From: a virus
Length of the DNA stretch: 64,000 nucleotides
IMG/VR virus record: IMGVR_UViG_3300023179_006727
Span: 37,735 to 101,734 of that record
Direction: 5' to 3' (one strand)
Part shown: piece after piece, positions 16,813-44,800 of the stretch
Position numbering within the stretch: the first letter of the stretch is position 1
Layout of the letters: the number at the start of each line of letters is the position of its first letter
The notes under the pieces: model-generated
The model's input: only the letters and a program-made list of their open reading frames with translations
The model's database searches: none
Told to the model about the DNA's origin: nothing
Translations under genes and position numbers: made by a program

Positions 16813-18696
16813 ATGACAGTCATTAAAAGACCCCTAAATTACCTTAATAATAAGGATATTCTCAAAGAGATTCACTTAAGTAAAAATACTTATTGCAGTT
16901 TTATAGAACCACAAGATCACCAATATGATTATATAATTGATTATGAAGAAGGTGTTTCACTAGAAGATAGTCTAAAAATTGCACTTAGACCTGATATTAT
17001 ACAAAAAGCAAAAGAAAATCGTGCTTATCGTTTAAGTATTGAAAATGGAACAAAAATAGATCCTACTACAATAGAACATAATGATCTAGTTTTTAGAATT
17101 ATGACGTGGGATCATATACCATTAGCCCCTAAACAACCTAGAAAAATTGACAAGAAAAAATCTGCAAAAGAATTGTTTGAATTTGAAATTGAAGAAGATC
17201 AAATATATGATGACTTAGATGATCCAAAATTAAACAAAGAAATGGGCATGTCAGATATGATCCATGTTCGTGTCAATTTCCCACCATTTCAACATTTTAA
17301 GTACGCAGTAGTAGGGGGACAAATGTATTGTGTAGGTAAATCTCATTGGAAAGGTGACATCTATACAGGCCATTTTGATAAAGATAAAGGTCAACTTACT
17401 AACAAACTAGCCAAAATGTACCTCATGCTATGTGAAAAATATGCTATGAGGTTCAATTGGCGTGGTTACTGCGTAGATAAAACTACTGAAGCATTAACAC
17501 AACGTGGTTGGTTATCCTATGATCAAATCAATGAAGATGACAAAATTTTATCATATAATGAAAATAAATTAGTATGGTCATCAATTACATCAATATATAG
17601 GGGTCAATATAATGGATTAATGCATTATATGACTGCAACGGGTTTAGATTCACTCATGACACCTGAGCACAAACTTGTTACTAAAAATGGTCTTAAAAAA
17701 GTTGAACATGTTTTAGAACATGATAAAGTCGTTCTTATGGGTCAACCATTGGAGGATTGTACTATTCCAACAATTAATAATAGTTTAGTAGAAATTATTG
17801 GTTGGGTTGTTACTGAAGGTTCTTATGACTATTATCCAAATAAAACAATTAAACATATCAGTATCTATCAAAATAATGGGAAAAAAGCTAATCGAATACG
17901 TAAGTTACTAGAAAGTTTGGATATTAATTTTAGTGAAAGAATGAGAAAAAATAATATTTGTTTTAGAATTAATACAGAATCTTCCAAAAAAATAGCTGAA
18001 ATTGCACCACAAAAAAACCTTACCATGGAATTTTTGTTAAAACTTACCTATGAGCAAAGACTAACCTTATTACATACTATGATAGATGGTGATGGTTGGC
18101 GCACAGGAACTAAAAAACAAAATTTACGATATGTACAAAAGAACAAAGCTCACATCGATATGTTTCAAACACTATGCACCATGGTTGGATTAAGGTCGAA
18201 TTATCACCTACGAAACCATGTTTCATACGGTAAACCCACTAGTTCATATACTGTAAACATATTTTCAAATAGGAAAAATACAACAAGATTTGAAAATATT
18301 AGCTTGAATGGTGGTAAACAAAGCGGCAAAAACTATATTGGTAAAGGCAAAACTGCTCATCCTAATACACCTACAGTACCATATAATGACATTGTATGGT
18401 GTCCTGAAACAGAATATGGATGCTTTATTGCTAGAAGGAATGGCACAATTTTCTTAACAGGTAATACTTATAATGACGAAATGCGTGGTGCGGCTATTTT
18501 ACAATTAACTTATGTTGGGTTACGATTTAATGAGGCTAAATCAAGCAATCCTTTTGCTTATTATACAGCAGCAATTACTAATTCATTCTGTCGTGTATTG
18601 AATACAGAAAAGAAAAATCAAGGCATTCGTGATGATATTTTAGAGACTAACGGTCTAAACCCAAGTTGGTCAAGACAATTTGCGGAAGAATCCTAA
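16813..18696 (+). CDS. gp55: Late-transcription sigma factor (T4 gp55-like) precursor containing an intein
   Basis: Exteins carry NYLNNKDIL, RFNWRGY/TYNDEM and FNEAKSSNPFAYYT....NSF.RVL..EKKNQ. Order gp55-gp47-gp46 as in T4-like phages. Confidence 0.88.
   Translation: MTVIKRPLNYLNNKDILKEIHLSKNTYCSFIEPQDHQYDYIIDYEEGVSLEDSLKIALRPDIIQKAKENRAYRLSIENGTKIDPTTIEHNDLVFRIMTWDHIPLAPKQPRKIDKKKSAKELFEFEIEEDQIYDDLDDPKLNKEMGMSDMIHVRVNFPPFQHFKYAVVGGQMYCVGKSHWKGDIYTGHFDKDKGQLTNKLAKMYLMLCEKYAMRFNWRGYCVDKTTEALTQRGWLSYDQINEDDKILSYNENKLVWSSITSIYRGQYNGLMHYMTATGLDSLMTPEHKLVTKNGLKKVEHVLEHDKVVLMGQPLEDCTIPTINNSLVEIIGWVVTEGSYDYYPNKTIKHISIYQNNGKKANRIRKLLESLDINFSERMRKNNICFRINTESSKKIAEIAPQKNLTMEFLLKLTYEQRLTLLHTMIDGDGWRTGTKKQNLRYVQKNKAHIDMFQTLCTMVGLRSNYHLRNHVSYGKPTSSYTVNIFSNRKNTTRFENISLNGGKQSGKNYIGKGKTAHPNTPTVPYNDIVWCPETEYGCFIARRNGTIFLTGNTYNDEMRGAAILQLTYVGLRFNEAKSSNPFAYYTAAITNSFCRVLNTEKKNQGIRDDILETNGLNPSWSRQFAEES
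17470..18465 (+). mobile_element. Intein (332 aa) with LAGLIDADG homing endonuclease
   Basis: Block A CVDKTTEALTQRGW; block B TPEH; LAGLIDADG helices IIGWVVTEG and LLHTMIDGDG; C-terminus VWCPET...FLTGN followed by Thr. Removal restores RGY|TYNDEM. Confidence 0.93.
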
Positions 18697-22930: not shown

Positions 22931-23253
22931 GCGTTAAGCAACAACCAATTATTATAACTTTTTATTATTTTGAGCGTCGCTGATTAAAGGCATTTGATAG
23001 AACCCCCCTAATACAAATGATGTGCTGAAAATCCCCCCACCTATTAATGGCTTTATTACCCCCCATGGTTTTCAACACATTGAGTTTAAAAAATAAAAAA
23101 AGAAAAAAAGATTTTTGTTTTTTCGAATTTATGAGAAAAAACAAAAATAGATGACTGCAGGTCGATAGACCAAAGTCATCTTTAAAGAAAAGCAAGGATG
23201 ATATTAAGGCATTATCAACAAAAAATTCAATGTAAGTTTCAAATAAAAAATTT

Positions 23254-23466
23254 TTAAAAGAAAGGTAAACCACTTTTTTTTGTGGTTTCTAAATTATCAT
23301 CTATAAGTTGGTTAATTAGTTGTGTTTCTGTGGGTGATAAATTCATTGCATCAGTATACGATAGTGATCCACGCATATACCAAGACAAACGCAATGCATT
23401 AGATTTAATATTTTTTACTTCTTCGTCAAGTGATTTTACTAGCTTCTCTATGTCATCTTGTGACAA
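23254..23466 (-). CDS. Small baseplate/tail assembly protein (gp51-like position); probably the -1 frame extension of the upstream gene
   Basis: LRLSWYMRGSLSYTDAMNLSP. TTG start with no SD. In the -1 frame of the slippery site at 23484-23490. Confidence 0.7.
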   Translation of the reverse strand: MSQDDIEKLVKSLDEEVKNIKSNALRLSWYMRGSLSYTDAMNLSPTETQLINQLIDDNLETTKKSGLPFF

Positions 23467-23490
23467 ATAGAGAAGCTTTAGTCGAAAAAA
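23441..23490 (-). promoter_or_regulatory. Programmed -1 ribosomal frameshift signal
   Basis: Minus strand T TTT TTC heptamer (23490-23484), 6-nt spacer, then 15-bp hairpin AGCTTCTCTA-TT-TGTCA-CAAGA-TGACA-TAGAGAAGCT (23477-23441). Confidence 0.8.
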
Positions 23491-24302
23491 TCGGTAACAT
23501 TAAATGCAACGGTTTGTTTATATTCGTGTTTACAATTAATACATTTAAATTGAAGTGGTTTACTTGAACTACTATCTCGTAATTCAATACTTTTATCACG
23601 AATTTTATCATACATTTTTTTATCACAATTTTGTAAAAAATCTAGAATAAAATTTTGATCAGTTACCGTTGTTTCAGGAGTTTTTATATATTGAATACTT
23701 TTACCAAGAATTTTTTGACTTAATTCATTCATTTTAGCTAATAATTCACTTGCTGCTTTATTTTTAGCTTCACCATTTTCAAATGAATCAAGTTGTGCTA
23801 AACCACGTTGAATTTCAAATTGTTCAGTATTATTTGCGTTGTTTTGTTGATATGTTACTTCATTGAATTTAACTGAAAGATCACCTAGCATAAGTTCTTT
23901 ATTATAATCTCCAACACTAATACCACTTAATAATTGTGAAAGATTTACTCCAAATCTCATTGTTTCACTACAACTAGGGCAGCTAGTATCAACATCCATT
24001 TCGTCACCTGTAGTAGCAATTTTTATAGCAATAAGTATAGTTTCAATATCACTATTAATAATTTTCCATGGATTTTTAATGGATGGGACACAACTTTTAA
24101 TAATTGATACTACTGCTGATCCATTAAAAAGTGCATCAGGAGTACGTGAAGTAATTTCATCATTAGCTGTCATTGGATATACAGGTAATTCTCCTGTAGG
24201 AGGAAATTCTATAATATCAGGCGTGTAATTAAACTTACTTGGTAATCTAATATGTATCGCAGGTCTGCGAAAATACTGCTTAAGTGGGTTATTTTCCATC
24301 AT
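23478..24302 (-). CDS. Baseplate hub assembly chaperone, gp26-like
   Basis: NPLKQYFRRP...LPS...PMTANDEI...D..TILIAIKIAT.G, with CPSC and CINC zinc-binding pairs; ends DFFD. Confidence 0.78.
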   Translation of the reverse strand: MMENNPLKQYFRRPAIHIRLPSKFNYTPDIIEFPPTGELPVYPMTANDEITSRTPDALFNGSAVVSIIKSCVPSIKNPWKIINSDIETILIAIKIATTGDEMDVDTSCPSCSETMRFGVNLSQLLSGISVGDYNKELMLGDLSVKFNEVTYQQNNANNTEQFEIQRGLAQLDSFENGEAKNKAASELLAKMNELSQKILGKSIQYIKTPETTVTDQNFILDFLQNCDKKMYDKIRDKSIELRDSSSSKPLQFKCINCKHEYKQTVAFNVTDFFD

Positions 24303-24369: not shown

Positions 24370-27300
24370 ATGGCAGATCAACTTGATCCTGATATAATAC
24401 AACAGTTAAATGAGAAATTTAACGAATTAGCTGCTATTACCTCGTCTGCTGCAGCACGAGCTAGTGCAAGTGCTTCTGCTACTCAAAATCAAACTGCAGC
24501 AGCAAAAAAAAATACTGATGCAAGTAATGATAATTTTGAAGCTATAAGACGTGCAAATCAAGCAATACGACAACAATCAGGTGCAGTAGATTCTAGTCGT
24601 GCTACTATTAATAGATTAAATGCTAGTATTCAAGATCAGTACAAAGCTTACGAGGCCAATCAAAAAGCTATAGAAGAAATTGAAAAGGCTACTAATAAAG
24701 CAGCACAACAGGAGCGTAATAAAGCAATTCATCTTGAGCGTGCAGTAGAATCCACAATTGCTGCATTTGAACAATTAGGCAAAGCTATATTTGATTCTAG
24801 TAGGGGAATGTCAAAATATACAGGTGTAGTTGAAAACCTTACAACTGCAGTAAGTGCGTTGTTATTAATTTTTGGCGGTCCGTTACTCAAAGTGGTAGGT
24901 TTAGTTGTTGGAGCATTAGGTAAATTATTTGGTGCGCAATTAGAGCAAATTGAAGCAAGTAATAAATTATATGAATCGTTAAGTGAATTTGGTGCATTAA
25001 GATTAGATGAGTTTGGTAATGGTATACAGTCTATCACACAAGATGTACATAAATTTGGATTAACAGTAAAGAATGATGGTGGATTATTTGTAGATAGTAT
25101 GAAAGGTATGTCCAAGGAGATTGTTGCGCTTGGAGGTACAGTAGGTCAAGGTCGTGGACAATTAGCGGATGCTTTTGGTGCAAATATTGGTGCACCTATT
25201 GAAGATGAATTACGCAGACTTGGTTATAATAGTCAAACATATTTTAAATCATGGGCAAAAGCTACGCAATTAGCTATACAATCAGGTCAAGCTGTTGGTA
25301 AAAGTAATTCGGAGTTAAACAAACAAACCAATCAATATTTAAAAACGTTAACTGAACTAAGTGAATTAACAGGTATTTCACGTGATGAGCAAATGGCTAT
25401 ACGTGAAAGAGCAATGCAAGATGAAGCTTATTTCATGAAACGCCGTGAAATTGCTGCTAGTGGGGATGACAAAGCTTTAGAACGTTTTGATAAATTAACT
25501 ACGGTAACAAATCAGTTTGGTGATGGAATTGGGCAGGTAATTAAAGAAGTAACGAATGCAGGTGGAGTAGTTACTGAAAGAGCAGCAGAAATTAATGCAT
25601 TTACAAATGGAGCAATTGAACGTGCCACACAAGCATATAATCGTGGTGCGATTGATGAACAACAGTTACGTAAAGAAATTGCAGAGGCAGTTAATTCATT
25701 AAGAGAAAGATTTGGTTCAAAAGCTATAGCGATTTTGGGTAATGATTTTGCAAAAGCGATAGGCTTATCAAGTGAAGCAATGAAGGCATCTGCGACTATA
25801 GAAAAACAATCTGCGGATGCAGCAAAAACAGCAAGAAATGTCATAGATAAAATTGCTGCAGAAGGTGCAGGAAAAGAACGTCAAATTGCAATTGATGAAA
25901 ACAAAATGGCTATAAAAAATCAACAAGCCTTAGAAAAAGTCATTCAAGTGACAAATGGACCGCTTATTGGGGCTTTTGAAAAATTAATTCAAGTCACTAA
26001 TAAGTTGCGTGATGCTTTTGTAAAAATATTACGTATGGTTGGTATTGATGCTGAAGCGGGTACATCAGCGGAATCAAAAAGACGTGTACAAGCTGCTGAA
26101 AGTTCATTAGAAGAGACCAAAAAAAGTTTAGAATTTCAAAAACAGCAAGCTCAAAAAACTGCGATGAGAGCAGCAGGTATTAAAGAAGGTGAGACAGGAA
26201 CAGAGGAGCAACGTAAAAAGTATCAAGAAATATACAATAAAGAATTAGAACGTACTACAAAATTTGACCGTGAACGTATTGCTTCATTAGAAACGCAACG
26301 TGCATTATCACTTGAAGAAGAGCGTGATCGTTTAATTAAAGAGGGTTCATTAAAAGAAGAGGTAAAACAAAATAAAGAATTAATTGCAGCAAAAGAAAAA
26401 GTTGCAGAAGTTGATAAATTAATTGCTGATTATGAGGGCCGTAGAAAAAAGGTCCTAGAATCGTTAAAACTAACTGAAGAAGATTTAAAAGGGCGTAATT
26501 ATGCAAAAAATATAGACGTTGTGCGTAAGGCAGAGCAGAAATATTTAGAAGATTTAAAAGAACAGCGTGGTATAAGAGCAGCAGAATATGCTAAAAAGTT
26601 AGAGGAACAAGTTAAACCTGCTCGTGAAGGTGTTGCTGAACCTACAAGTAAATCTGCATCTACTACTATATCTGTAGCAGATGCAAAACAATTTGAAGGT
26701 ACACAAAAAGAGTTTTATGATAAGATGTATAAAACTTTGCTTGACGAAGCCAAGAAAGCAGGATTAAAGAATGCAGAAGTTATAGCAAAATTAGGTGCGT
26801 CACAATCTGCATTAGAAACAGGTTATGGCAAATCTACTGCAGGTGCTGAAAATTATTTTGGGATAAAAGCACAAAAAGGTCAGCCTAGTAACACTGTAGA
26901 AACTACTGAATGGGATGAAAAGAAACAACAATACGTAAAACAATCTGCTGCGTTTAGAAAATATGGTAGTATGCAAGAATCTGCTGCTGATTATATTAAG
27001 TTTTTACAAGAAAATAAACGATATAGTAAGGTATTAAGTGCTGAAAATATAGCGGAAGCTATAGCAGAGCAGGGTAAGACAGGATATGCTACTGACCCAC
27101 AGTACGTAAAAAAATTAGCTGATATTACTGCAAGGGCAGAAAAAACTTTTGCTCCACAAACTCAAATCGCAGCAGTAAAACCTGAAAAACAAGCAGTGCC
27201 AGCACAAAAACCACAAGTAGCAACTGCTCCACCTGAAAAACAAGCAGTGCCAGCACAAAAACCACAAGTTGCAGCGGCATCTCCCGAAAAACAAGTAGAA

Positions 27301-27624
27301 CCACAAAAAGTACAAGTTGCTTTATTAACATCTGAAAAACAAGCAGTGCCAGCACAAAAACCACAAGTAAATCTACCTGATATTAATAAAATGTATGGAG
27401 GTGGATTATCTGCCAATCCAATGACAGATAGTTTGCGTTATAGTGAAAAAGATGAAGTAATTAATTTATATAATAAATTAGCAGAATTATTACCAATAAA
27501 AGAATTGATTGCTGCTATAAATCGACAAACTGATTTATTAGTAGCAGGTATTGATGGCATGAAGGATAAAATGACTGAAAATAATAGCATAGCGAGTGAT
27601 CAATTATTGTACTTACAGACCTAA
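24370..27624 (+). CDS. Tape measure protein with C-terminal GH73 (FlgJ-like) peptidoglycan hydrolase domain
   Basis: Long helical Ala/Gln/Lys-rich body with a hydrophobic segment. SQSALETGYG...NYFGIKA...FRKY.S..ES..DY...YATDPQY at about 26790-27110. Confidence 0.85.
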   Translation: MADQLDPDIIQQLNEKFNELAAITSSAAARASASASATQNQTAAAKKNTDASNDNFEAIRRANQAIRQQSGAVDSSRATINRLNASIQDQYKAYEANQKAIEEIEKATNKAAQQERNKAIHLERAVESTIAAFEQLGKAIFDSSRGMSKYTGVVENLTTAVSALLLIFGGPLLKVVGLVVGALGKLFGAQLEQIEASNKLYESLSEFGALRLDEFGNGIQSITQDVHKFGLTVKNDGGLFVDSMKGMSKEIVALGGTVGQGRGQLADAFGANIGAPIEDELRRLGYNSQTYFKSWAKATQLAIQSGQAVGKSNSELNKQTNQYLKTLTELSELTGISRDEQMAIRERAMQDEAYFMKRREIAASGDDKALERFDKLTTVTNQFGDGIGQVIKEVTNAGGVVTERAAEINAFTNGAIERATQAYNRGAIDEQQLRKEIAEAVNSLRERFGSKAIAILGNDFAKAIGLSSEAMKASATIEKQSADAAKTARNVIDKIAAEGAGKERQIAIDENKMAIKNQQALEKVIQVTNGPLIGAFEKLIQVTNKLRDAFVKILRMVGIDAEAGTSAESKRRVQAAESSLEETKKSLEFQKQQAQKTAMRAAGIKEGETGTEEQRKKYQEIYNKELERTTKFDRERIASLETQRALSLEEERDRLIKEGSLKEEVKQNKELIAAKEKVAEVDKLIADYEGRRKKVLESLKLTEEDLKGRNYAKNIDVVRKAEQKYLEDLKEQRGIRAAEYAKKLEEQVKPAREGVAEPTSKSASTTISVADAKQFEGTQKEFYDKMYKTLLDEAKKAGLKNAEVIAKLGASQSALETGYGKSTAGAENYFGIKAQKGQPSNTVETTEWDEKKQQYVKQSAAFRKYGSMQESAADYIKFLQENKRYSKVLSAENIAEAIAEQGKTGYATDPQYVKKLADITARAEKTFAPQTQIAAVKPEKQAVPAQKPQVATAPPEKQAVPAQKPQVAAASPEKQVEPQKVQVALLTSEKQAVPAQKPQVNLPDINKMYGGGLSANPMTDSLRYSEKDEVINLYNKLAELLPIKELIAAINRQTDLLVAGIDGMKDKMTENNSIASDQLLYLQT
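27181..27370 (+). repeat. Intragenic tandem repeats PEKQAVPAQKPQV (about 4 units, 17 aa period)
   Basis: CTGAAAAACAAGCAGTGCCAGCACAAAAACCACAAGT occurs three times, plus one degenerate unit. Confidence 0.9.
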
Positions 27625-32450: not shown

Positions 32451-33662
32451 ATGTCTAAAGTATTATTAGAGAGCCGTTGGGGTGAAACAAAAGAAGCCCT
32501 TCTAGAAGGTCTCAAAGGAACTCGTCGTTCAACAATGGGTGTCATTCTTGAAAACACTCGCAAGCAGTTACTTGCTGAATCTTCAGCAGGTACAACTACA
32601 GCAGGTAACATTGCAACACTTAATCGTGTTATTCTTCCCGTTATCCGCCGTGTTATGCCAACCGTTATTGCTAATGAGTTGGTTGGTGTTCAGCCCATGA
32701 CAGGACCCGTAGGTCAAATTCATACACTACGTGTTCGTTATGCAAATAATATGAACGATACAAGCGCAGCACAAACAAGTGTTGTTGCAGGTGAAGAAGC
32801 ATTGTCACCATTCAAGATTGCTCAAGCATATTCTTCAGCAAGTAGTACAACTGCAGGTGTGGTTAACACAAACCAAACACGTTATACTGCGGCAGATACA
32901 AGTGTTCTTGAAGGTAGTGGTGGTCGTCAAATCAGCGTACAGATCTTACGTCAGGCTGTTGAAGCTAAGTCACGTAAGTTACAAGCACGTTGGACATTTG
33001 AGGCTGCACAAGATGCACAGTCACAGCATGGCATTGATGTTGAAGCTGAAATCATGGCAGCACTTGCGCAAGAAATTACTGCTGAAATTGATCAAGAAAT
33101 TCTCTTATCATTACGCAGTCTTGCAGCTACAGAATTCACATACAATCAAGCAACCGTTTCAGGTACAGCTACATTTGTAGGTGATGAGCATGCAGCATTA
33201 GCAGTATTAATTAATCGTGTTGCCAATTTAATTGCTCAGCGTACACGTCGTGGTGCAGGTAATTGGGCAGTTGTTTCAAGCGAGAGTTTAACAATTCTCC
33301 AAAGTGCAACAACATCAGCATTTGCACGTACTACAGAGGGTACTTTTGAAGCACCAACAAATACAAAATTAGTTGGTACATTAAATAATGCAATGCGTGT
33401 TTTTGTTGATAGCTATGCTCCAACAGGTACAGCAGTTCTTGTTGGTTATAAAGGTTCAAGTGAAACAGATGCAGCAGCATTCTATTGCCCATATATTCCA
33501 TTAATGAGCAGTGGTGTTGTTTTAGATCCAACAACATTCGAACCCGTAGTCTCGTTCATGACTCGTTATGGATATATCGAGTTAACGAATACAGCATCAT
33601 CATTTGGTAATGCTGCTGACTATGTTGGTGAAATTGCTGTTCAAAATGTAAGTTTTCAGTAA
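32451..33662 (+). CDS. gp23: Major capsid protein
   Basis: RRVMP..IANELVGVQPMTGP.G, AKSRKLQARWT.E.AQD, AEIDQEI, FYCPYIPL, FMTRYG; GGAG RBS. Confidence 0.97.
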   Translation: MSKVLLESRWGETKEALLEGLKGTRRSTMGVILENTRKQLLAESSAGTTTAGNIATLNRVILPVIRRVMPTVIANELVGVQPMTGPVGQIHTLRVRYANNMNDTSAAQTSVVAGEEALSPFKIAQAYSSASSTTAGVVNTNQTRYTAADTSVLEGSGGRQISVQILRQAVEAKSRKLQARWTFEAAQDAQSQHGIDVEAEIMAALAQEITAEIDQEILLSLRSLAATEFTYNQATVSGTATFVGDEHAALAVLINRVANLIAQRTRRGAGNWAVVSSESLTILQSATTSAFARTTEGTFEAPTNTKLVGTLNNAMRVFVDSYAPTGTAVLVGYKGSSETDAAAFYCPYIPLMSSGVVLDPTTFEPVVSFMTRYGYIELTNTASSFGNAADYVGEIAVQNVSFQ

Positions 33663-33774: not shown

Positions 33775-35319
33775 ATGTTATTGGATCAAGATATGAAAGA
33801 TAAAATTGTAGAAATTGTTGAGAAATACTCCAAGCATTACGTTAGGATGATTAAAAACAGAGAAGAATTAATGACATGGGTAGTGACTCATAGCAAAGTT
33901 AGTAGTGATGATATTGGGTTACTAATTTATAGTGCATTAAATGATGTTAGTAATGTGTGTCCATATGGCAAGGAAAAAAAGTTTGGTGGACTTTCAGTAG
34001 GTTTGCGCAATTGCGGATCATCTAAAGTTTGCCAATGTACACGTGAGCAAGTATCAAAATCGGTAATTCAAACTAAAAAAACGATTACTGAAGAACAACA
34101 AAAAAAAATTAATATAAAAAGGGCAAAAACTAATTTAGAAAAATATGGTGTTGAAAATATTGGACAAACAAATTTGGCTAAATTAAAGCATCGTGAATTT
34201 TATTTGACCCATGAAAATAAGAAAAATACCATTGAGTCAAAAAGCGCAAAACAGATTGGATATGAAAAGTTTAAAGGTTATATAGATAAACAATACAATT
34301 TTAAACTTTTGACCACTTTAGAAGAATATCGGGGTATACGTCAAAAAGATGCCTATGAGTACTTATTTCAGTGTAACATTTGTAAAGATATAGTATCATA
34401 TCGATTCTATCATAAACGAGGTATTACTTGTGACAAATGTAATCCTAAAAAACCTTTATATACAAGTCATGAAGAACAATCGATTTTTGATTATATAACA
34501 CAGGATTTAAAAGTTAATGGTGTACAAAGTGACAAAAAGCTTATAAATCCGTATGAATTAGATATGGTATTTCATGAATATAAAATTGCTATTGAATATT
34601 GTGGATTATATTGGCATAGTGAATTAAGTTCAGGAAAGCATAGAAACTATCATAAAACCAAAATGGAATTAGTCAATGAGTTAGGATACAGATTAATTAC
34701 TATCTTTTCCGATGAATGGTTAAACAAAAAAGAAATTGTTAAGAAAAGATTACAGCATATTTTCAACAAAAGTACAAGTAAGCAGTATGCAAGAAATTTA
34801 AAGGTTGTTGAGATAACAAACACAGACGCAAAGTCCTTTTTAAATCAATATCACATTCAAGGTTATACGATTGCTCCAATAAAATTGGGATTAGTAGACA
34901 ATTATGGAAAATTATTTGCTTTGATGACGTTTTCAAAAGGTAGAGCATCATTAAATTCAAGTGATGAATACGAATTAGTACGCTATGTGACAAATGGGAC
35001 AGTTGTTGGGGGTGCAGGAAAGTTATTGAAATATTTTACGAAGCTTTACAATCCTAAAAAAATAGCTACTTATGCTGATTTACGTTGGAGTCAGGGTAAT
35101 TTATATAAGGTGTTAGGTTTTAATAGAGTTGGTGATGCAAAAGTTGGATATTGGTACGTTGAAAATTATAATAAAAGATTGCATCGATATAATTTTACTA
35201 AGCATAAGTTAGTTAGAATGGGAGCAAATTCATTACTTACAGAATGGAAAATAATGCAAAATTTAAATTATGACCGAATTTGGGATTGCGGTCATCAAAA
35301 ATTTGAATTAATATTATAA
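33775..35319 (+). CDS. Free-standing homing endonuclease, Hef-like PD-(D/E)XK
   Basis: NLEKYGVEN motif; zinc ribbon CNIC..CDKC; YELD......IAIEYCGLYWHS; FLNQYHIQG; YELVRY; YADLRWS.GNLY; IWDCG. Confidence 0.78.
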   Translation: MLLDQDMKDKIVEIVEKYSKHYVRMIKNREELMTWVVTHSKVSSDDIGLLIYSALNDVSNVCPYGKEKKFGGLSVGLRNCGSSKVCQCTREQVSKSVIQTKKTITEEQQKKINIKRAKTNLEKYGVENIGQTNLAKLKHREFYLTHENKKNTIESKSAKQIGYEKFKGYIDKQYNFKLLTTLEEYRGIRQKDAYEYLFQCNICKDIVSYRFYHKRGITCDKCNPKKPLYTSHEEQSIFDYITQDLKVNGVQSDKKLINPYELDMVFHEYKIAIEYCGLYWHSELSSGKHRNYHKTKMELVNELGYRLITIFSDEWLNKKEIVKKRLQHIFNKSTSKQYARNLKVVEITNTDAKSFLNQYHIQGYTIAPIKLGLVDNYGKLFALMTFSKGRASLNSSDEYELVRYVTNGTVVGGAGKLLKYFTKLYNPKKIATYADLRWSQGNLYKVLGFNRVGDAKVGYWYVENYNKRLHRYNFTKHKLVRMGANSLLTEWKIMQNLNYDRIWDCGHQKFELIL

Positions 35320-36154: not shown

Positions 36155-39100
36155 ATGTTATTAGCTACCTTAATACAAACAGGAACATATTTTCCTCCTG
36201 CCCCAGGTAAGCTCTTATACCTTTGGGGCAATAACACTTATGGACAATTAGGTGATGGTACTACAGTAAGTAAATCATCACCTGTTTTAGTTCCTACTTC
36301 ATCATGGAAACAAGTATCGGTTAATAGATTTTACACCGCTGCTATTCGTTCTGATAATTTATTGTTTGCTTGGGGTAGAAATAATTATGGACAGTTAGGA
36401 GATGGCACAACAGTAAACAAGTCATCACCTGTACAAATTGGTTCTTCACAATGGAAATCAGTTTCGGTTGCTACATCTAATACTACTGCGATTGATAATA
36501 ATAATAATTTGTTTATATGGGGAGCAGGTGTATCTGTAGGTGATAATTATTTTTTAATCCCTTATAAAATAAAGCAACCATCGGGTTCAACATATATTGA
36601 TTCTAGTTGGACAATGGTTAGTGTTGGTCCTTCCCATACTGCTGCTATTCGTTCTGATGGAATATTATTTACGTGGGGGTTCAATAACAATGGACAATTA
36701 GGTGACGGAACTACGGTAACTCGAACTTACCCAACTCAAATTGGCAATTTAAGTTGGAACATGGTAAGTGCAGGTGGATTACCTTCTAATAGCACTGAGT
36801 ACACATTAGGTATAACAAGTAATGGGTTACTTTATTCTTGGGGATATGGTGGTAATGGTGCTACAGCAGATGGTGATTTTTATAATCCAAATGTTATCAA
36901 ATTTCAAGTGGGAACAAGCTATATAGATTATAGTTGGACAGCCTTATCTTCAAGGGGTTCTAATTTTGTTCTTGCAGTTAGAAATGATGGACTGTTATTT
37001 TCTTGGGGCAGAAATCAATATGGTCAATTAGGTGATGGTACTACTGTTAATAAATCTACTCCTGTTCAAATTGGTAGTAGTAGTTGGATAGCTGTATCAA
37101 CAGGATCTCTACATGCCTTAGCTATACGCAGTGGTGGAACATTATTTTCTTGGGGCAGAAATAATTATGGACAGTTAGGAGATAGTACTACTGTTAATAA
37201 ATCATCACCTGTACAGATTGGTAGTAGTAGTTGGACAACTATTAGTGCATATGGTACTGTTAGTACAGGTATTAGTAACAATAATCTTTTTGTATGGGGA
37301 TTTAACGGCACGGGGTTTCGTTTGGGTTTAGGTGATGGCACAACAACAAATAGATCATCCCCCGTTCAAATCGGAGATCCTGCGATAAGTTGGCAAACTG
37401 CAGTTGCAGGTGGATATCAATCAGCGACATTGAATTCTACCAATCTATTATATACATGGGGTAGAAATAATCGAGGTCAATTAGGTAGCGGCTCTACAGT
37501 TAATAGATCATCCCTTGTACAAGTTGGTGGTAGTAGTTGGACAGCTTTAAGTATGGGCATGAGTCATACTGTAGGTATTCGTTCAGATGGAATATTATTT
37601 GCTTGGGGATTAAATAATTTTGGACAATTAGGAGATGGTACTGGAATTAGTAGATCTTCCCCTGTACAAATTGGTAGTAGTAGTTGGATTGCTGTACGTG
37701 CAGGATCATATCACACTGTTGCAATAAGAAGTGGTGGAACATTATTTACTTGGGGTAGCAATTTTTTATCACAATTGGGAGACGGAAATTCACAAGGTAC
37801 GACTGTGATCTCGCCCGTACAAATTGGTAGCAGTAGTTGGACAGCGATAGCTGCAGGTTCAACTTTTAGTGCAGGTATATCGGATGGATTATTATATGCA
37901 TGGGGATATAATTCAAACGGACAAATTGCAGTAAGTGGTTCAACCCAAATATATAATTGGATAAGTACTAGTTCGGGTACTGATATGCATGCTGCGATTC
38001 GTAGTGATGGTTATTTATTTGCATGGGGTTTAAATTCATATGGTCGATTAGGTGATGGCACGACTATTAATAAATCATCACCTGTACAAATTGGTAGTAG
38101 TAGTTGGATTGCAGTTAGTGTGGGACAAAACTTTACTTCTGCAATACAAAGTGGTGGTACATTATTTACATGGGGGAGAAATACTTTTGGGCAATTAGGT
38201 GATGGTACTACAGTCGATAAATCATCACCTGTACAAATTGGTAGCAGTAGTTGGACAAGCGTTGCAGCAGGTGGTAGTCATGTTGTTGCAATTCGTTCTG
38301 ATGGTTTATTATTTGCTTGGGGTAACAATAATTTAGGACGATTGGGTGATGGTACTACTGTTAATAAATCATCTCCCGTACAAATTGGTAGTAGTAGTTG
38401 GACTGCGGTATCAGGCGGAAGAAATCATACAATTGCTATTAGAAGCGGCGGAACATTGTTCGGATGGGGGGATGGAACTTTTGGACAATTAGGATACGGA
38501 TCTACACTTAGGTTAGAACCAGGTCTTCTTAGTTACCCGCAAGACACAGCAAGTTGGACAAGCGTTGCATCAGGTGCTAGTCATGTTGTTGCAATTCGTT
38601 CTGATGGTTTATTATTTGCTTGGGGTAACAATAATTATGGACAATTAGGTGATGGCACAAATATAACCCGTAGTGTTCCAACACAAATCGGCAATGATAG
38701 TTGGACTGTAATCGGGGCGGGTCGAAGAATATCAGCAGGAATTAATAGTAACGGTATAGTATATACGTGGGGATATAATACTAACGGTGAGTTAGGAAGT
38801 GGTGATACAACAAGTAGGAACGCTCCTGGAACACTTGCGTCAGGATTTAATAGTAGATCCGCAACAAGATTAGGAGTCGGAGCTAATCATATGATGGCAT
38901 ACTTTCCTACACTAGGTGATGTTTACGGTTGGGGAGTTGGCTTTAATGGGCAATTGGGAACAGGAAGTAGTGGCATTACCTATCGCCTATCAACACCTAC
39001 GCTCTTAGGTTTAGGTGGGGGTGAACCCCAAAAAATTTCATTAGGTGATCGTTTCTCATTAGTTTTAATTAGTAATGGTACTTTATTTGGAACAGGTTTA

Positions 39101-41896
39101 AATACTTATGGACAAATGAGTTCAGGAAATACAACGCAGCGAAATGTTTGGGCATCTATAGGCACGTCAATAGTATATAACGATATAGCAGCAGGTAAGG
39201 GGCATGCATTAGGTATAAGATCAACAGGTCAATTATTTGCATGGGGGAGAAATGATTTTGGGCAATTAGGTGATGGTACTACTATTAATAGACTTTCAAT
39301 GGTTTCAATTGGAGCAAGTAGTTGGTCAGCAGTTGGATCAGGTATTTATGCTAATACTTCATTAGCTATCAGAAGTGGAGGAACATTATTTAGTTGGGGA
39401 TTAAATTCATGGGGTCAATTAGGTGATGGTACTCAAATTAGTAAATCATCACCCGTACAAATTGGTAGCAGTAGTTGGATAGCAGTATCTGCGGGCGGTT
39501 TAAATTCTGTAGCTATACGAAGTGGTGGTACATTATTTACTTGGGGTTCAAATTCATATAGTCAATTAGGTACCAATTTGTCCCAAGTTTCTCCTGTGCA
39601 AGTAGGAAGTAGTAGTTGGACAGCGATAGCTGCAGGTTCAAATTTTAGTCTTGGAATAACAAATAATAATGCACTTTATGCATGGGGAAGAAATAATAAA
39701 AGTCAATTAGGCGTAGGTATTGTTCCCCTTACCGAACAATATACTCCTTTACAAGTAGGATTAGGTAATAGTTGGACAGCGATAGCAGCAGGTAATTATT
39801 TTAGTGCAGGTATAGATACTAATGGGTATTTGTACATGTGGGGTCAAGGAAATTACGGACAGTTAGGTTTAGGTAATCCTCCTATAAGTATATCTGTCAA
39901 CCAAAGAGTTATTACGCAAGTAAAATTAGGTTTAAATAATATTTTTTCTTCAGTACAATGTGGTGGCTATGGCACCTCTGCAATAGATAGCAATAATAAA
40001 TTATATGTATGGGGTAATGGCGGCAATGGTGCGAACGGTCAAAATTTAAATAATATACGCATAATTTTTAGACCATTACAAATTGGTGGTTCAAGCACTT
40101 TGCTTGGTGCAACATTTAATTCACCAACCTTAATAAATTCTTCTTCGTGGACTGCCTTATCAAGTAGCTCTGATTTTGTAGTAGGTATTAGTAGTGATAA
40201 TAAATTATTTACTTGGGGCAATAATTCGTATGGACAATTAGGCAATAATACTAAAGCTATACAATGGACAAATGTAGGGCCAAGCGCATTTCTAAAAAAT
40301 GGTTTATTATATGCATGGGGAGCAAATACTTACGGTCAATTAGGTGATGGTACTACAGTAAATAAATCTTCACCCGTACAAATTGGTAGCAGTAGTTGGA
40401 CTGCGGTAGCATTGTCTGCAGTTAATACCCAAATTTTAAATAATCGGTTTGCATTACAAACATTTGCAATACGAAGTGATGGATTATTATTTGCATGGGG
40501 ATTAAATAATTTTGGGCAATTAGGTGATGGTACGACTGTTAATAAATCATCACCGGTTCAAATTGGTAGTTCCTCATGGTCTGTAGTAGCAGGTGGCATG
40601 TACCACACTGTTGGTATTACTATTAATAATAAGTTATTTACATGGGGAAGAAATAATTATGGACAACTAGGGGATGGTACTACGGTTAATAAATCTTCCC
40701 CTGTGCAAATTGGTAGTAATGATTGGGGAATAGTTTCTGCAGGCCGTGGACTTTCTCATGCTATACGATCTGATAATCTTTTGTTTGGATGGGGAGGCAA
40801 TAATACTACTGCGGGATTCATAGGTGATAACACAACGATAAGTAGATCCTCACCTGTGCAAATTGGTAGCAGTAGTTGGACAACAGTTTCGTCTTCATCC
40901 TATGGAGCTAGTGCTATACGAAGTGGTGGTACATTATTTACATGGGGTTTAAATTCATATGGTCAATTAGGTGATGGTACTACTGTTAATAAATCTTCGC
41001 CCGTACAAGTTGATAGTAGTAGTTGGGTTGCAGTAAGTAGTGGTTGGCAACACTGTTTAGGAATTAAAGCTGGTACTAATGTTGCGGTTGGAGTATTGCT
41101 TGCTTGGGGCAGAAATCAATATGGTCAATTAGGTGATGGTACTACAGTAAATAAATCTACTCCTGTTCAAATTGGTAGTACAACAGAAGTCGATGCTCCA
41201 ACTTATACTAGTTGGATTATGATTTCAGCTAGGAGTGACAACTCATCTGGATTAAAACAAAATAATGTATTATATTTTTGGGGAAAAAATAATATTTCTC
41301 AAGTAGGGGATGGTACTACTATTAATAGACTAAATCCTTTTTTAATTCCTTATGTAAATCAAGAATTACAATCTTCATTCTTACAAAGTTTTAGTGGATC
41401 TCCTGTACAAATTGGTAATAGTAGTTGGACAGCAGTCAGTGCAGGCAACGCACATGTTGGTGCAATACGAAATGATAATTTGCTTTTTTCATGGGGATTA
41501 AATAATTTTGGGCAATTAGGTGATGGCACTACAGTAAATAAATCTTCACCCGTACAAATTGGTAGCAGTAGTTGGGCTACAATATCGGCAGGTTACAGAC
41601 ATACTGTAGCCACAACAAACAATGGCGCTTTATTTTCTTGGGGATTAAATAATTTCGGGCAATTAGGCGATGGTACTACTGTTAATAAATCATCACCTGT
41701 CTTTATTGCAGGAACTTATCAATCAAGTCTTAGATCTTGGAAATTTGTAAATACAGGTCAAGATTCTACTCTTGCTATTGATAATACCGATAAATTATAT
41801 GCTTGGGATTTGGTGTACCTAATGCAACAACGGGAATGCCGCAATTTACTGCATCAACAATTGATACAAGCAATCCATATCCTATTCGAACACTGA
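36155..41896 (+). CDS. Giant RCC1/BLIP-II beta-propeller protein, 5' part (37 blades)
   Basis: Repeats LF.WG.N..GQLGDGTTVNKSSPVQIG...W..VSAG..HT.AI. Repeat sense is lost after YAW at 41806. TATAAATA at 36143. Confidence 0.9.
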   Translation: MLLATLIQTGTYFPPAPGKLLYLWGNNTYGQLGDGTTVSKSSPVLVPTSSWKQVSVNRFYTAAIRSDNLLFAWGRNNYGQLGDGTTVNKSSPVQIGSSQWKSVSVATSNTTAIDNNNNLFIWGAGVSVGDNYFLIPYKIKQPSGSTYIDSSWTMVSVGPSHTAAIRSDGILFTWGFNNNGQLGDGTTVTRTYPTQIGNLSWNMVSAGGLPSNSTEYTLGITSNGLLYSWGYGGNGATADGDFYNPNVIKFQVGTSYIDYSWTALSSRGSNFVLAVRNDGLLFSWGRNQYGQLGDGTTVNKSTPVQIGSSSWIAVSTGSLHALAIRSGGTLFSWGRNNYGQLGDSTTVNKSSPVQIGSSSWTTISAYGTVSTGISNNNLFVWGFNGTGFRLGLGDGTTTNRSSPVQIGDPAISWQTAVAGGYQSATLNSTNLLYTWGRNNRGQLGSGSTVNRSSLVQVGGSSWTALSMGMSHTVGIRSDGILFAWGLNNFGQLGDGTGISRSSPVQIGSSSWIAVRAGSYHTVAIRSGGTLFTWGSNFLSQLGDGNSQGTTVISPVQIGSSSWTAIAAGSTFSAGISDGLLYAWGYNSNGQIAVSGSTQIYNWISTSSGTDMHAAIRSDGYLFAWGLNSYGRLGDGTTINKSSPVQIGSSSWIAVSVGQNFTSAIQSGGTLFTWGRNTFGQLGDGTTVDKSSPVQIGSSSWTSVAAGGSHVVAIRSDGLLFAWGNNNLGRLGDGTTVNKSSPVQIGSSSWTAVSGGRNHTIAIRSGGTLFGWGDGTFGQLGYGSTLRLEPGLLSYPQDTASWTSVASGASHVVAIRSDGLLFAWGNNNYGQLGDGTNITRSVPTQIGNDSWTVIGAGRRISAGINSNGIVYTWGYNTNGELGSGDTTSRNAPGTLASGFNSRSATRLGVGANHMMAYFPTLGDVYGWGVGFNGQLGTGSSGITYRLSTPTLLGLGGGEPQKISLGDRFSLVLISNGTLFGTGLNTYGQMSSGNTTQRNVWASIGTSIVYNDIAAGKGHALGIRSTGQLFAWGRNDFGQLGDGTTINRLSMVSIGASSWSAVGSGIYANTSLAIRSGGTLFSWGLNSWGQLGDGTQISKSSPVQIGSSSWIAVSAGGLNSVAIRSGGTLFTWGSNSYSQLGTNLSQVSPVQVGSSSWTAIAAGSNFSLGITNNNALYAWGRNNKSQLGVGIVPLTEQYTPLQVGLGNSWTAIAAGNYFSAGIDTNGYLYMWGQGNYGQLGLGNPPISISVNQRVITQVKLGLNNIFSSVQCGGYGTSAIDSNNKLYVWGNGGNGANGQNLNNIRIIFRPLQIGGSSTLLGATFNSPTLINSSSWTALSSSSDFVVGISSDNKLFTWGNNSYGQLGNNTKAIQWTNVGPSAFLKNGLLYAWGANTYGQLGDGTTVNKSSPVQIGSSSWTAVALSAVNTQILNNRFALQTFAIRSDGLLFAWGLNNFGQLGDGTTVNKSSPVQIGSSSWSVVAGGMYHTVGITINNKLFTWGRNNYGQLGDGTTVNKSSPVQIGSNDWGIVSAGRGLSHAIRSDNLLFGWGGNNTTAGFIGDNTTISRSSPVQIGSSSWTTVSSSSYGASAIRSGGTLFTWGLNSYGQLGDGTTVNKSSPVQVDSSSWVAVSSGWQHCLGIKAGTNVAVGVLLAWGRNQYGQLGDGTTVNKSTPVQIGSTTEVDAPTYTSWIMISARSDNSSGLKQNNVLYFWGKNNISQVGDGTTINRLNPFLIPYVNQELQSSFLQSFSGSPVQIGNSSWTAVSAGNAHVGAIRNDNLLFSWGLNNFGQLGDGTTVNKSSPVQIGSSSWATISAGYRHTVATTNNGALFSWGLNNFGQLGDGTTVNKSSPVFIAGTYQSSLRSWKFVNTGQDSTLAIDNTDKLYAWDLVYLMQQRECRNLLHQQLIQAIHILFEH

Positions 41897-44800
41897 AAAT
41901 AAAAACTGCACTTAATCCTGCTGCCTTTCCTGATTATCAATGGATTGCAGCCTCAACTTGCGGAAATATGAGTTTTGGAATACGAAATGATGGTATTTTA
42001 TTCGCATGGGGATATTCAAATAATGGTGGTTCAGGATCGCTTACAAATAAATTTGTAAATCCACCATCACCTATACTTGTACAAGGTAGCACTTTTAGCC
42101 AATTTGTTGCTGTAACTTCAGGCGATCAGCACAGTGCTGCAATTCGTAGTGGTGGTACATTATTTACTTGGGGATTAAATTCATTCGGTCAATTAGGTGA
42201 TAGTACTACAGTAAGTAAATCTTCGCCCGTACAAATTGGTAGCAGTAGTTGGACTGCAGTTTGTGCGGGATCTCAAGGATTTATTCTAGCTCTTAGATCA
42301 GATAATTTACTTTTTTCATGGGGTCGTAATCAATATGGACAATTAGGTGATGGTACTACAATTAACAAATCTTCACCTGTACAAATCGGTAGTAGTAGTT
42401 GGATTGCTATATCAGGTGGTAATGGTTTTGTTGCTGCTATTCGTTCGGGTGGTACATTATTTTCTTGGGGAAGAAATCAAAGTGGACAATTAGGTGATAG
42501 CACTACAGTTAATAAATCATCACCTGTACAAATTGGTAATAGTAGTTGGATAGCTGTATCAGCAGGAGATCAACACGTAGCTGCAATTCGTAGTGGTGGT
42601 ACATTATTTACTTGGGGATTAAATTCATTTGGTCAATTAGGTGATAGTACTACAGTTAATAAATCATCACCTGTACAAATTGGTAGCAGTAGTTGGAGTA
42701 TTTTACCTGCAGGTTTACAAAATTCAACTATGGCATTAGATCCTACAGGAACACTTTATACATGGGGCAATAATTCCAATGGACAATTAGGCGATGGCAC
42801 GTCAATCAATAAATCATCTCCTGTACAAATCGGTGGTTCGACTAAGTTTTCATATATTGCGATGGGGTTACAGACATTACCTGCATGTTTTGGGATAGCT
42901 TCAAATGGGACAATGTATTCATGGGGTGGGGATTCCACTTACCCAGGGATTGCAATCGGTAGGCCTGGGGCGTTGATTCCTGTACAAGTTGGCGCAGGGG
43001 GAATTAATGCTCAAAGTATTACATTTCAAAATTTAAATTGGTCTACCGCATCAATAGTCCAACCTGCCTCTGAAAATAAAGGTCAAGCTGCAGCAATAAC
43101 AACCAATGGTACATTATATGTGTGGGGTATTAATAATTATGGTCAATTAGGTAATGGGAATACAGTAAGACAGATTTTTCCACAACAATTGGATTCAAAT
43201 TCTTGGACTATGGTAAGTGTAGGCCAATACCATATGCTTGGCCTACTCCCCAACGACACATTATTTGCATGGGGTAGAAATCAATATGGTCAATTAGGAG
43301 ATGGTACCACAATAAATCGTTCTTCACCTGTACAGCTTGGTGGTATTACTAGATTTAATAATGGTAGTTGGACTTTAATTAATGCAGGACAACAATTAAG
43401 CGCAGGTATTGGAAAATCAAATTCATACTTGTTTACATGGGGATCAAGTAATTTAGGTCAACTAGGACGATCAATGGGTGGTTCAGCACCTTTTCAAATT
43501 GGTACATCATCATGGACAGCAGTTTCTACAGAATTTAATCAATTTGCTGCCGCAATAAAATCTGATGGATCTTTATTCACTTGGGGACAAAATTCAAGCG
43601 GACAACTTGGAGACGGCACCACAGTTAATAAATCATCACCTGTGCAAATTGGTAGTAGTAGTTGGACAGTAGCTAGTGTAGGAGGTTCGCACACTGTAGC
43701 TATACGAAGTGGTGGTACATTATTTACTTGGGGATTAAATTCAAGTGGTCAATTAGGTGATGGTACGACTGTTAATAAATCATCACCTGTTCAAATTGGA
43801 TCATCATCATGGATTGCAATTTCAGGAGGTGGATTACATTCTGCTGCAATTGATATTAATAGTTTGTTATTTACTTGGGGATTAAATTCAAGCGGACAAC
43901 TTGGAGATGGAACCACTGTTAATAAATCATCCCCCGTACAAATTGGTAGTAGTAGTTGGACAGCAGTATCTGCGGGTCCTTCTAATTCTGTAGCTATACG
44001 AAGTGGTGGTACATTATTTACTTGGGGATTAAATAGCGTAGGTCAATTAGGTGATGGTACGACTGATAATAAATCATCGCCCGTACAAATTGGCAGTAGT
44101 AGTTGGACAGCAGTTAATGCGGGTTGGGTAATAATAGATGCTATAAGAAGTGGTGGTACATTATTCACTTGGGGATCAAATTCATTTTTTATTGGAAGCA
44201 GTCGCCCCCCAGGCGGCCTCTACCCATACCAACTTGGTTATGATTCATGGGCAGCATTATCTACTACAATATCAAATTCAAGTGCCGTTCGTTCTGATGG
44301 AATATTGTTTACTTGGGGAAATAATGCATCAGGACAAATAGGAGATGGCACCACCATACAAAGAGGTAGTCCTGTACAAATTGGTAGTAGTAGTTGGACT
44401 ATTGTCAGCGTAAATCCGTCTGTTACAAGTGCGGTAAGATCTGACGGTTTATTATACGCATGGGGATCAAATACGTTTGGTGAACTTGCTGATGGCTCTT
44501 TTATCAGTAATTTTTCACCACAACTTGTTGGTTCGTCGCAACCATTTAGTTGGATTTCAATTACGGGTTGGGTAAAAGGTCATCGTGCAGCCATACGTTC
44601 AGATGGAATTTTGTTTACATGGGGAAGAAATACTCAAGGACAGTTAGGAAATGGTACAACAATCACCACTTCAAGACCTTCGCCTTTAGTATTTCCATAT
44701 AATAAAAGTCAATGGACTGCTGTAGCTGTAAGCAATTATCATTCATTAGCAATACGTAGTGATGGTTATTTATTTGCATGGGGAGCAGGTTTGTTTGGCA

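Follow-up and report, generated by a model that had tools for sequence, protein, structure and literature searches.

Does a phage gene that closes on a run of six T encode one protein or two? The question is raised by a minus-strand gene of the gp26/gp51 family within positions 23254..24302 of a 64,000-nucleotide (nt) stretch of viral DNA (positions 37,735 to 101,734 of the IMG/VR record IMGVR_UViG_3300023179_006727; this whole stretch is the window hereafter), where a small open reading frame (ORF) in the -1 frame follows the end of the gene. The source record is 101.7 kilobases (kb) long and estimated to be 27% complete, its origin being lake and freshwater metagenomes of several studies. 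Pfam and PHROG scans of the window found a T4-type portal, prohead protease and major capsid protein, a gp46/47-like nuclease and a gp55-like late sigma factor; judged by this gene content the genome is that of a giant T4-related myophage. Our answer is that two proteins are very probably made, via a programmed -1 ribosomal frameshift in the single gene of the gp26/gp51 family that this uncultured giant T4-related phage from fresh water carries. The elements involved are the following.

23478..24302 (stop included), minus strand: zero-frame gene of the short product, 274 amino acids (aa), gp26/gp51 family of baseplate-hub assembly proteins
23484..23490, minus strand: slippery heptamer T_TTT_TTC in X_XXY_YYZ phase, codons GAT TTT TTC, with Phe-Phe in the P and A sites
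23478..23483, minus strand: spacer GAC TAA of 6 nt, the last zero-frame codon and the stop
23441..23477, minus strand: stem-loop of 10 + 5 base pairs (bp) with a 2-nt bulge and a 5-nt loop, the probable frameshift stimulator
23257..23484, minus strand: -1 frame extension of 76 codons, RLKLLYLSQDDIEK...WYMRGSLSY...NLETTKKSGLPFF
23254..23256, minus strand: TAA stop codon of the long product, read from the sequence

The 274-aa protein carries two CxxC pairs and ends in ...DFFD. It matched the Pfam family PF12322 (T4_baseplate) at 3.3e-16 (60.1 bits over profile positions 35-218 of 219, and 58.9 bits in a genome-wide search, where the curated cut-off is 24.5 bits) and the baseplate hub family phrog_150 at 8e-17. 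The 3' end of its ORF reads ...ACC GAT TTT TTC GAC TAA on the minus strand. A first-pass annotation, made from the letters and reading frames, had seen here T TTT TTC followed 6 nt on by a 15-bp bulged hairpin, and re-reading the sequence agreed. It had also placed the opening of the -1 frame only a few codons before the site, continuing into the small ORF at 23466-23254: indeed a TAA lies three codons ahead of the two Phe codons (FF), after which the frame reads RFFRLKLLYLSQDDIEK... as far as the stop at 23256..23254. Joining zero-frame residues 1-273 to the 76 codons of the extension gives a predicted fusion of 349 aa beside the short product of 274 aa, and the lengths that we computed are the same as those first given. 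The small ORF was said to have neither an ATG nor a Shine-Dalgarno (SD) motif of its own, and this too was borne out: no in-frame ATG stands ahead of the conserved core of the window's -1 ORF, and the sole candidate start, a TTG at 23466, lies within the stem and is not preceded by a purine-rich stretch. The T6C site is covered by contigs of four independent studies, none of which has an insertion or deletion there, so that the run is not an assembly error. Rfam and transfer RNA (tRNA) scans of the region gave no relevant match.

The same arrangement was found in many relatives. Via tblastn, a gp26-like protein with a small ORF directly behind it was found in 95 isolated giant phages. Nine of these isolates, from very different hosts, carry the heptamer at the conserved xFF (Atu_ph07, Phosso, Xoo-sp13, A4, XbC2, PA5oct, BF, CBB and PBECO4), spelled T_TTT_TTT in Xoo-sp13 and T_TTT_TTC in the other eight. 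In all nine the -1 frame continues without a stop into the small ORF; ahead of the start codons annotated for that ORF it spells FF-R-x-x-L-L-x-S-x-P-E-E, and GenBank lists the extension as a small hypothetical protein. Among viral contigs a single-protein query with the window gene found no match, but alignment-based queries did find relatives: a profile search of IMG/VR with the small ORF yielded at least 596 loci, and a second scan added 80. All conservation counts refer to 136 distinct frameshift-type loci.

Across these loci the slip site is TTTTTTC in 135 and TTTTTTT in one, in phase in 136/136, and the base after the heptamer is G in 134. The codon before the heptamer varies among nine codons for eight amino acids, every one of which ends in T. 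The peptide of the -1 frame is conserved from its first codon (R-x-R/K-L-L), with R(+0) in 134/136 loci, L(+3) in 132, L(+4) in 114 and I(+11) in 117, and the extension is 76 aa long in 110/136. Its first possible ATG, GTG or TTG, on the other hand, falls anywhere from codon 1 to codon 36 (one locus has none), and an SD-like motif precedes that first possible start in only 7/136. The zero-frame tail after FF is 1 to 11 residues long in relatives and is not conserved. Taken together, these counts show a constraint on the DNA that goes further than the encoded residues require, and a constraint on the peptide that already applies ahead of any possible start; both are expected of a programmed shift, not of a separate small gene. 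A variable reading register and an ATG or SD of the small ORF's own in homologues were looked for in the same 136 loci, with a negative outcome. The fusion by -1 frameshifting, as originally proposed, is strongly supported by the heptamer, its phase and the -1 peptide across the family, as well as by the in-frame long forms and the gene copy number described below.

In part of the family the long form is encoded without any shift. A profile of the extension run against 1.8 billion representative proteins found 486 relatives; among the best 150, about 20 carry the extension at the C-terminus of one uninterrupted ORF of 319-351 aa. An earlier homologue search aimed at longer proteins had found no fused forms, but the exhaustive profile search did. 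At the protein level the in-frame junction reads x-F-R-x-K-L-I and has one Phe. Since an insertion or deletion in the T run would give F-F-R instead, these are genuine in-frame genes rather than assembly errors at that run. At the DNA level the in-frame junctions (TAT TTT CGG, ATA TTC CGG, CAA TTT AGA, CGT TTT CGT and ACT TTC CGA) have no T run, no fixed T before the Phe and no fixed Phe codon.

The number of PF12322 genes per genome follows the same division: i) one gene in 10/10 frameshift-type records, namely seven complete genomes (the isolates Atu_ph07, PA5oct, PBECO4 and Xoo-sp13 and three 100%-complete contigs with direct terminal repeats, DTR), two records about 70% complete, and that of the window; ii) two adjacent genes, one long and one short, in 5/5 in-frame records, in which the short paralogue (272-331 aa) lacks both the extension and the slip site; iii) two genes in T4 as well, namely 26 (short) and 51 (long). 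The five in-frame pairs (loci L098, L100, L101, L102 and L104; proteins P0116-P0220) come from uncultured members of the same phage group as the window and show the same body plus extension, with E from 1e-14 to 1e-22 against the profile of the extension; there the long form is an ordinary ORF, and the adjacent separate gene gives the short form. As to the order within the tandem pair, the long form comes first in L098 (2471..4393), and the short form comes first in L100, L101, L102 and L104, abutting or overlapping the long one. These five loci offer a natural series for the passage from a frameshift gene to two genes, or the reverse. A quick, preliminary tree put the in-frame forms at several positions among the frameshift genes, which suggests that switching between the two states, as far as it can be read from sequences, occurred more than once; the T4 rows of this tree sat on very long branches, and no direction of evolution was inferred from it.

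Structure downstream of the slip site is strong in the window and mixed in the family. The window hairpin has a folding energy of -23 kcal/mol; its z score is -4.5 when dinucleotides are shuffled, and -6.0 when synonymous codons are shuffled so as to preserve the -1 frame peptide. The nearest relatives keep the outer 7 bp (RGCTTCT/AGAAGCY), nucleotides which also encode the conserved K-L-L and K-L, and in their inner stem the sequence and register change while the pairing stays. In the family as a whole, z below -2 against synonymous shuffles was reached at 54/136 loci: 34 of the 56 that share the window's stop position and 20 of the 80 others. The 15-bp hairpin is specific to the window's clade, and extra downstream structure is common, though not homologous, throughout the family; some lineages may use other stimulators or none. 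The covarying stem that the first-pass annotation had proposed to look for among homologues is a feature of the window's clade and not of the whole family.

Structure prediction gave confident models of both forms, with predicted local distance difference test (pLDDT) scores of 90.4 for the window's short form (AlphaFold with 57 homologues) and 90.3 for an in-frame long-form homologue. The modelled body combines a long helical hairpin with two CxxC elements that are beta-hairpins, and the extension, modelled in the in-frame homologue, forms four helices. Among predicted viral structures the closest are T4-like proteins of baseplate hub assembly. A search of the PDB by sequence found no match, Foldseek with either model found nothing in the PDB at E <= 0.001, and in a wide structure search with the window's short form the match list was filled by the central helical hairpin.

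We propose the following sequence of events as a model. Most ribosomes would read ...D-F-F-D, meet the stop and release the 274-aa short form. A fraction would slip back by one base on U_UUU_UUC with tRNA-Phe in both the P and A sites while the hairpin, 6 nt further on, pauses the ribosome, and would then translate 76 codons in the -1 frame to yield the 349-aa long form with its helical C-terminal domain. Both forms would share the N-terminal zinc-ribbon/helical body, and the slip would set their ratio. Judging from T4 genetics, the two forms would act as T4 gp26 and gp51 do, as chaperones of baseplate-hub assembly; and by analogy with the gpG and gpGT tail chaperones of phage lambda (G/GT), the body common to both forms would hold the assembly of hub or tape measure, a further partner being recruited by the extra domain.

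The T4 proteins provide the closest comparison. T4 gp26 (208 aa) and gp51 (249 aa) are both members of PF12322, as is the window gene. T4 gp26 ends in ...EFFELL, i.e., FF plus three residues, much like the window's zero-frame product, but its FF is spelled TTC TTT and forms no slippery site, unlike that of the window. T4 gp51 continues after ...DVF with KLLVNPDEI... and ends in ...MIPAERGFVLKLIEKDKQ, and a multiple alignment puts these segments on the start and the last helix of the extension: the gp51 tail begins F-K-L-L-x-x-P-D-E-I, and the extension in the frameshift family begins F-R-x-K-L-L-x-S-x-x-(D/E)-I. The gp51 tail is 48 aa long and lacks the W-Y-M-R-G core, whereas the window's extension has 76 aa. 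By hhalign the tails alone matched with P = 1.2e-3 over 30 columns, and the full-length in-frame long forms were colinear with 92 gp51 homologues to both C-termini, with P = 1.8e-4. Thus T4 obtains a short/long pair from two diverged, divergently transcribed genes, and the window would obtain it from one. The naming of the two products as a gp26-like/gp51-like pair received moderate support from the FF-plus-three ending and the colinear tail; by sequence the short form is likely gp26-like and the long form gp51-like. In precomputed Pfam annotation of the gp51 homologues (P0246-P0337), PF28602 stands beside PF12322 on nearly all full-length proteins and is missing from those of 220 aa and shorter; PF28602 probably covers the gp51 C-terminal tail.

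Of the explanations that dispense with ribosomal slippage, the one with most in its favour takes the downstream ORF of 70-76 codons as a separate gene, translated from a non-ATG start or via termination-reinitiation, with no fusion made. Gene callers annotate the small ORF as its own coding sequence (CDS) in every isolate, the window has the TTG at 23466, and Atu_ph07, Phosso and L018 have an ATG that shares bases with the stop (ATGA). But no start is conserved in position across the 136 loci, where the SD-like motif is as rare as stated above (7/136), and residues ahead of any start are conserved; the invariance of T_TTT_TTC and of the T before it is left unexplained; the same domain is fused in frame to a gp26-like body in relatives; and the two-gene genomes pair a long with a short form, not a short form with a mini-protein. 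We consider a separate gene improbable, and independent translation of the small ORF possible only where the ATGA overlap exists.

Programmed ribosomal slippage must also be weighed against slippage of the RNA polymerase, which by adding one U in the T6 run would allow the same fusion from a messenger RNA (mRNA) longer by 1 nt with no slip of the ribosome, and there is a homopolymer at the junction where this could take place. The run is only six T, however, and bacterial RNA polymerase generally needs longer ones for appreciable slippage; it also lies always in X_XXY_YYZ phase, and in the window's clade it is followed by a hairpin at the 6-nt distance canonical for ribosomal frameshifting. 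A review that covers both mechanisms treats the shifts in tail chaperones as ribosomal (PMC5009743), which again speaks against the polymerase, and we rate this explanation as less probable still than a separate gene. Hardly credible, finally, is a broken gene or a sequencing or assembly artefact, i.e., a 1-nt homopolymer deletion in a long gene that was once in frame: homopolymers are error-prone and some relatives do have in-frame versions, but the same arrangement recurs in 136 distinct loci and in cultured viable phages, the four independent assemblies agree on it, and the in-frame versions, with one F and no T run at the junction, are not its undeleted form.

Several observations weigh against the programmed frameshift or against its reading in terms of T4. 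We infer both the occurrence and the rate of shifting from sequence. In the AT-rich 64-kb window TTTTTTC occurs 40 times where 32 are expected, which is no more than chance, so that the significance of the heptamer comes from the comparative data. When the window's stem was placed at fixed columns over 60 relatives the pairing was no better than in controls, and RNAalifold found no consensus structure in 52 sequences. The correlation of copy number with the slip site is perfect, at 10 against 5, in counts that come from related genomes, two of the five in-frame records being near-identical and several records incomplete. In L001 at 2980..2990 (Atu_ph07), L002 at 2985..2995 (Phosso) and L018, which is the window's closest relative, the extension has an in-frame ATG that shares bases with the zero-frame stop (...TTC GNA TGA...), and in these phages termination-reinitiation could, to judge from this overlap, yield a free extension peptide beside the fusion. 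As for T4, a hidden Markov model (HMM) of ten extensions was not significant against gp51, and homology of the extension with the gp51 tail is weakly supported (P of 1e-3 to 2e-4).

How does the proposed shift compare with the frameshifts known in tail chaperone genes? In the myophage P2, the tail chaperone pair E/E+E' is produced by a -1 slip on a T6G run; it shares the six-T run with the window and differs from it in protein family and gene position. A -1 frameshift in tail assembly chaperone (TAC) genes is among the most conserved recoding events of phages. The lambda gpG/gpGT chaperones and the conserved -1 shift of long-tailed phages (reportedly studied by Levin et al. 1993, and by Xu et al. 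2004) are reviewed by Atkins et al. 2016 (PMC5009743), where P2 is mentioned, where the G-T frameshift is described as conserved in long-tailed phages 'except T4', and where some tailed-phage shifts seem to use no stimulator; the window, unlike these last, has a strong hairpin. With lambda G/GT the window gene shares, on comparative evidence, a -1 slip close to where a tail-assembly gene ends, which would yield a short and a C-terminally extended product in a fixed ratio, and it likewise adjoins a (putative) tape-measure gene. It differs in its slip site (G_GGA_AAG in lambda, T_TTT_TTC here), in its protein family, and in orientation: lambda G/GT lies upstream of the tape-measure gene and is co-transcribed with it, whereas the window gene is divergent from the putative tape-measure gene. 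No Pfam TAC family gave a match, and in fold comparison with TAC structures the matches were within noise. The equivalence to G/GT that had been claimed for this gene therefore stands as to logic, and neither Pfam nor fold comparison gave evidence that the protein is homologous to gpG-type chaperones; only by analogy may the gene be called a tape-measure or hub chaperone with G/GT logic.

The putative tape-measure gene next to it is the following.

24370..27624, plus strand: gene for a 1084-aa protein, divergent from the frameshift gene, with a PF01832 glucosaminidase domain at residues 799-923 (1e-22)

The first-pass annotation had called it the adjacent, divergently transcribed tape-measure gene; the divergent orientation was confirmed, and the protein is tape-measure-like only weakly. 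Its N-terminal 777 aa matched phrog_7025 (2e-6) and phrog_167 (6e-4), both 'tail length tape measure' and both weak matches, and had no tblastn match in isolated phages; residues 799-923 form a mannosyl-glycoprotein endo-beta-N-acetylglucosaminidase domain. On these sequence matches the protein may be a tape measure that carries a cell-wall hydrolase, and we infer that it is linked with the frameshift gene. In PA5oct, CBB, BF, XbC2 and PBECO4 a gene for a large virion protein is likewise divergent.

What is described here is the known frameshift logic of tail chaperones, in a different protein family and in a lineage that was thought to lack such a shift. A literature search, with most subscription journals outside it, found no report of a frameshift in gp26/gp51-family genes, and the genome papers of PA5oct and CBB mention none. 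The locus bears on gp26 and gp51 themselves. In T4 these are chaperones of baseplate hub assembly, the step at which the tape measure gp29 is built in; gp51 is needed for assembly and is absent from the finished particle, and the mechanism of the two proteins has gone unexplained for decades (Leiman et al. 2010, PMC3004832). The one-gene/two-gene pattern links the T4 paralogues to the G/GT logic, and from the at least 596 IMG/VR relatives we predict that the gp26/gp51 family is widely expressed as a short/long pair via a -1 slip. The cultured phages PA5oct, Atu_ph07, 121Q/PBECO4 and CBB make the question testable. Moreover, the annotation of the extension, now a small hypothetical protein with arbitrary starts, would be corrected, and the natural interconversions of frameshift and duplication provide material on how recoding evolves.

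A broader scheme can be drawn from this pattern, which we put forward tentatively and doubt slightly more than we believe: the gp26/gp51 family would be the T4-lineage counterpart of G/GT, one gene read in two frames would be its ancestral or commonest state across giant and other T4-related phages, T4 26/51 would be a subfunctionalised duplicate of such a gene, a conversion that would have taken place several times, and the 76-aa extension would be an adaptor recruiting the tube initiator or a hub protein to the tape-measure/hub complex, in a stoichiometry set by the frameshift rate. If true, it would remove the 'except T4' exception and give the 'catalytic' role of gp51 a concrete model. The cultured phages PA5oct, Atu_ph07, 121Q/PBECO4 and CBB make the question testable. 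Moreover, the annotation of the extension, now a small hypothetical protein with arbitrary starts, would be corrected, and the natural interconversions of frameshift and duplication provide material on how recoding evolves.

At the end of the extension lies one further element.

23257..23288, minus strand: terminator-like hairpin AAACCAC-A8-GTGGTTT with a T-rich tail, overlapping the last extension codons

A consensus terminator scan found one terminator where 0.6 were expected. The hairpin is likely the end of the transcription unit, and such an end fits a single-gene unit read in two frames. Downstream of the frameshift gene follows a very AT-rich stretch of 800 nt that has only short ORFs with non-ATG starts; within it, at 23000..23085 on the minus strand, six to seven G in a row occur three times (CATGGGGGGTAA, GGTGGGGGGATT and TAGGGGGGTTC) at intervals of about 30 nt. 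Long T/A runs adjoin these G runs, which had no match in the Rfam and tRNA scans.

Three other places in the window, all on the plus strand, deserve mention. At 16813..18696 a 627-aa ORF has the ends of a late sigma factor (phrog_12791 at residues 8-220 and phrog_234 at 552-618) and a LAGLIDADG domain (PF14528) in its middle; these matches suggest a gp55-like late sigma factor split by an intein or a homing-endonuclease insert. Directly after the major capsid gene (32451..33662) stands a 514-aa HNH/homing-endonuclease-like gene at 33775..35319 (phrog_3339, phrog_559). Further on, two very large ORFs, 36155..41896 (1913 aa) and 41803..51381 (3192 aa), share about 90 nt and possibly encode fibre or decoration proteins.

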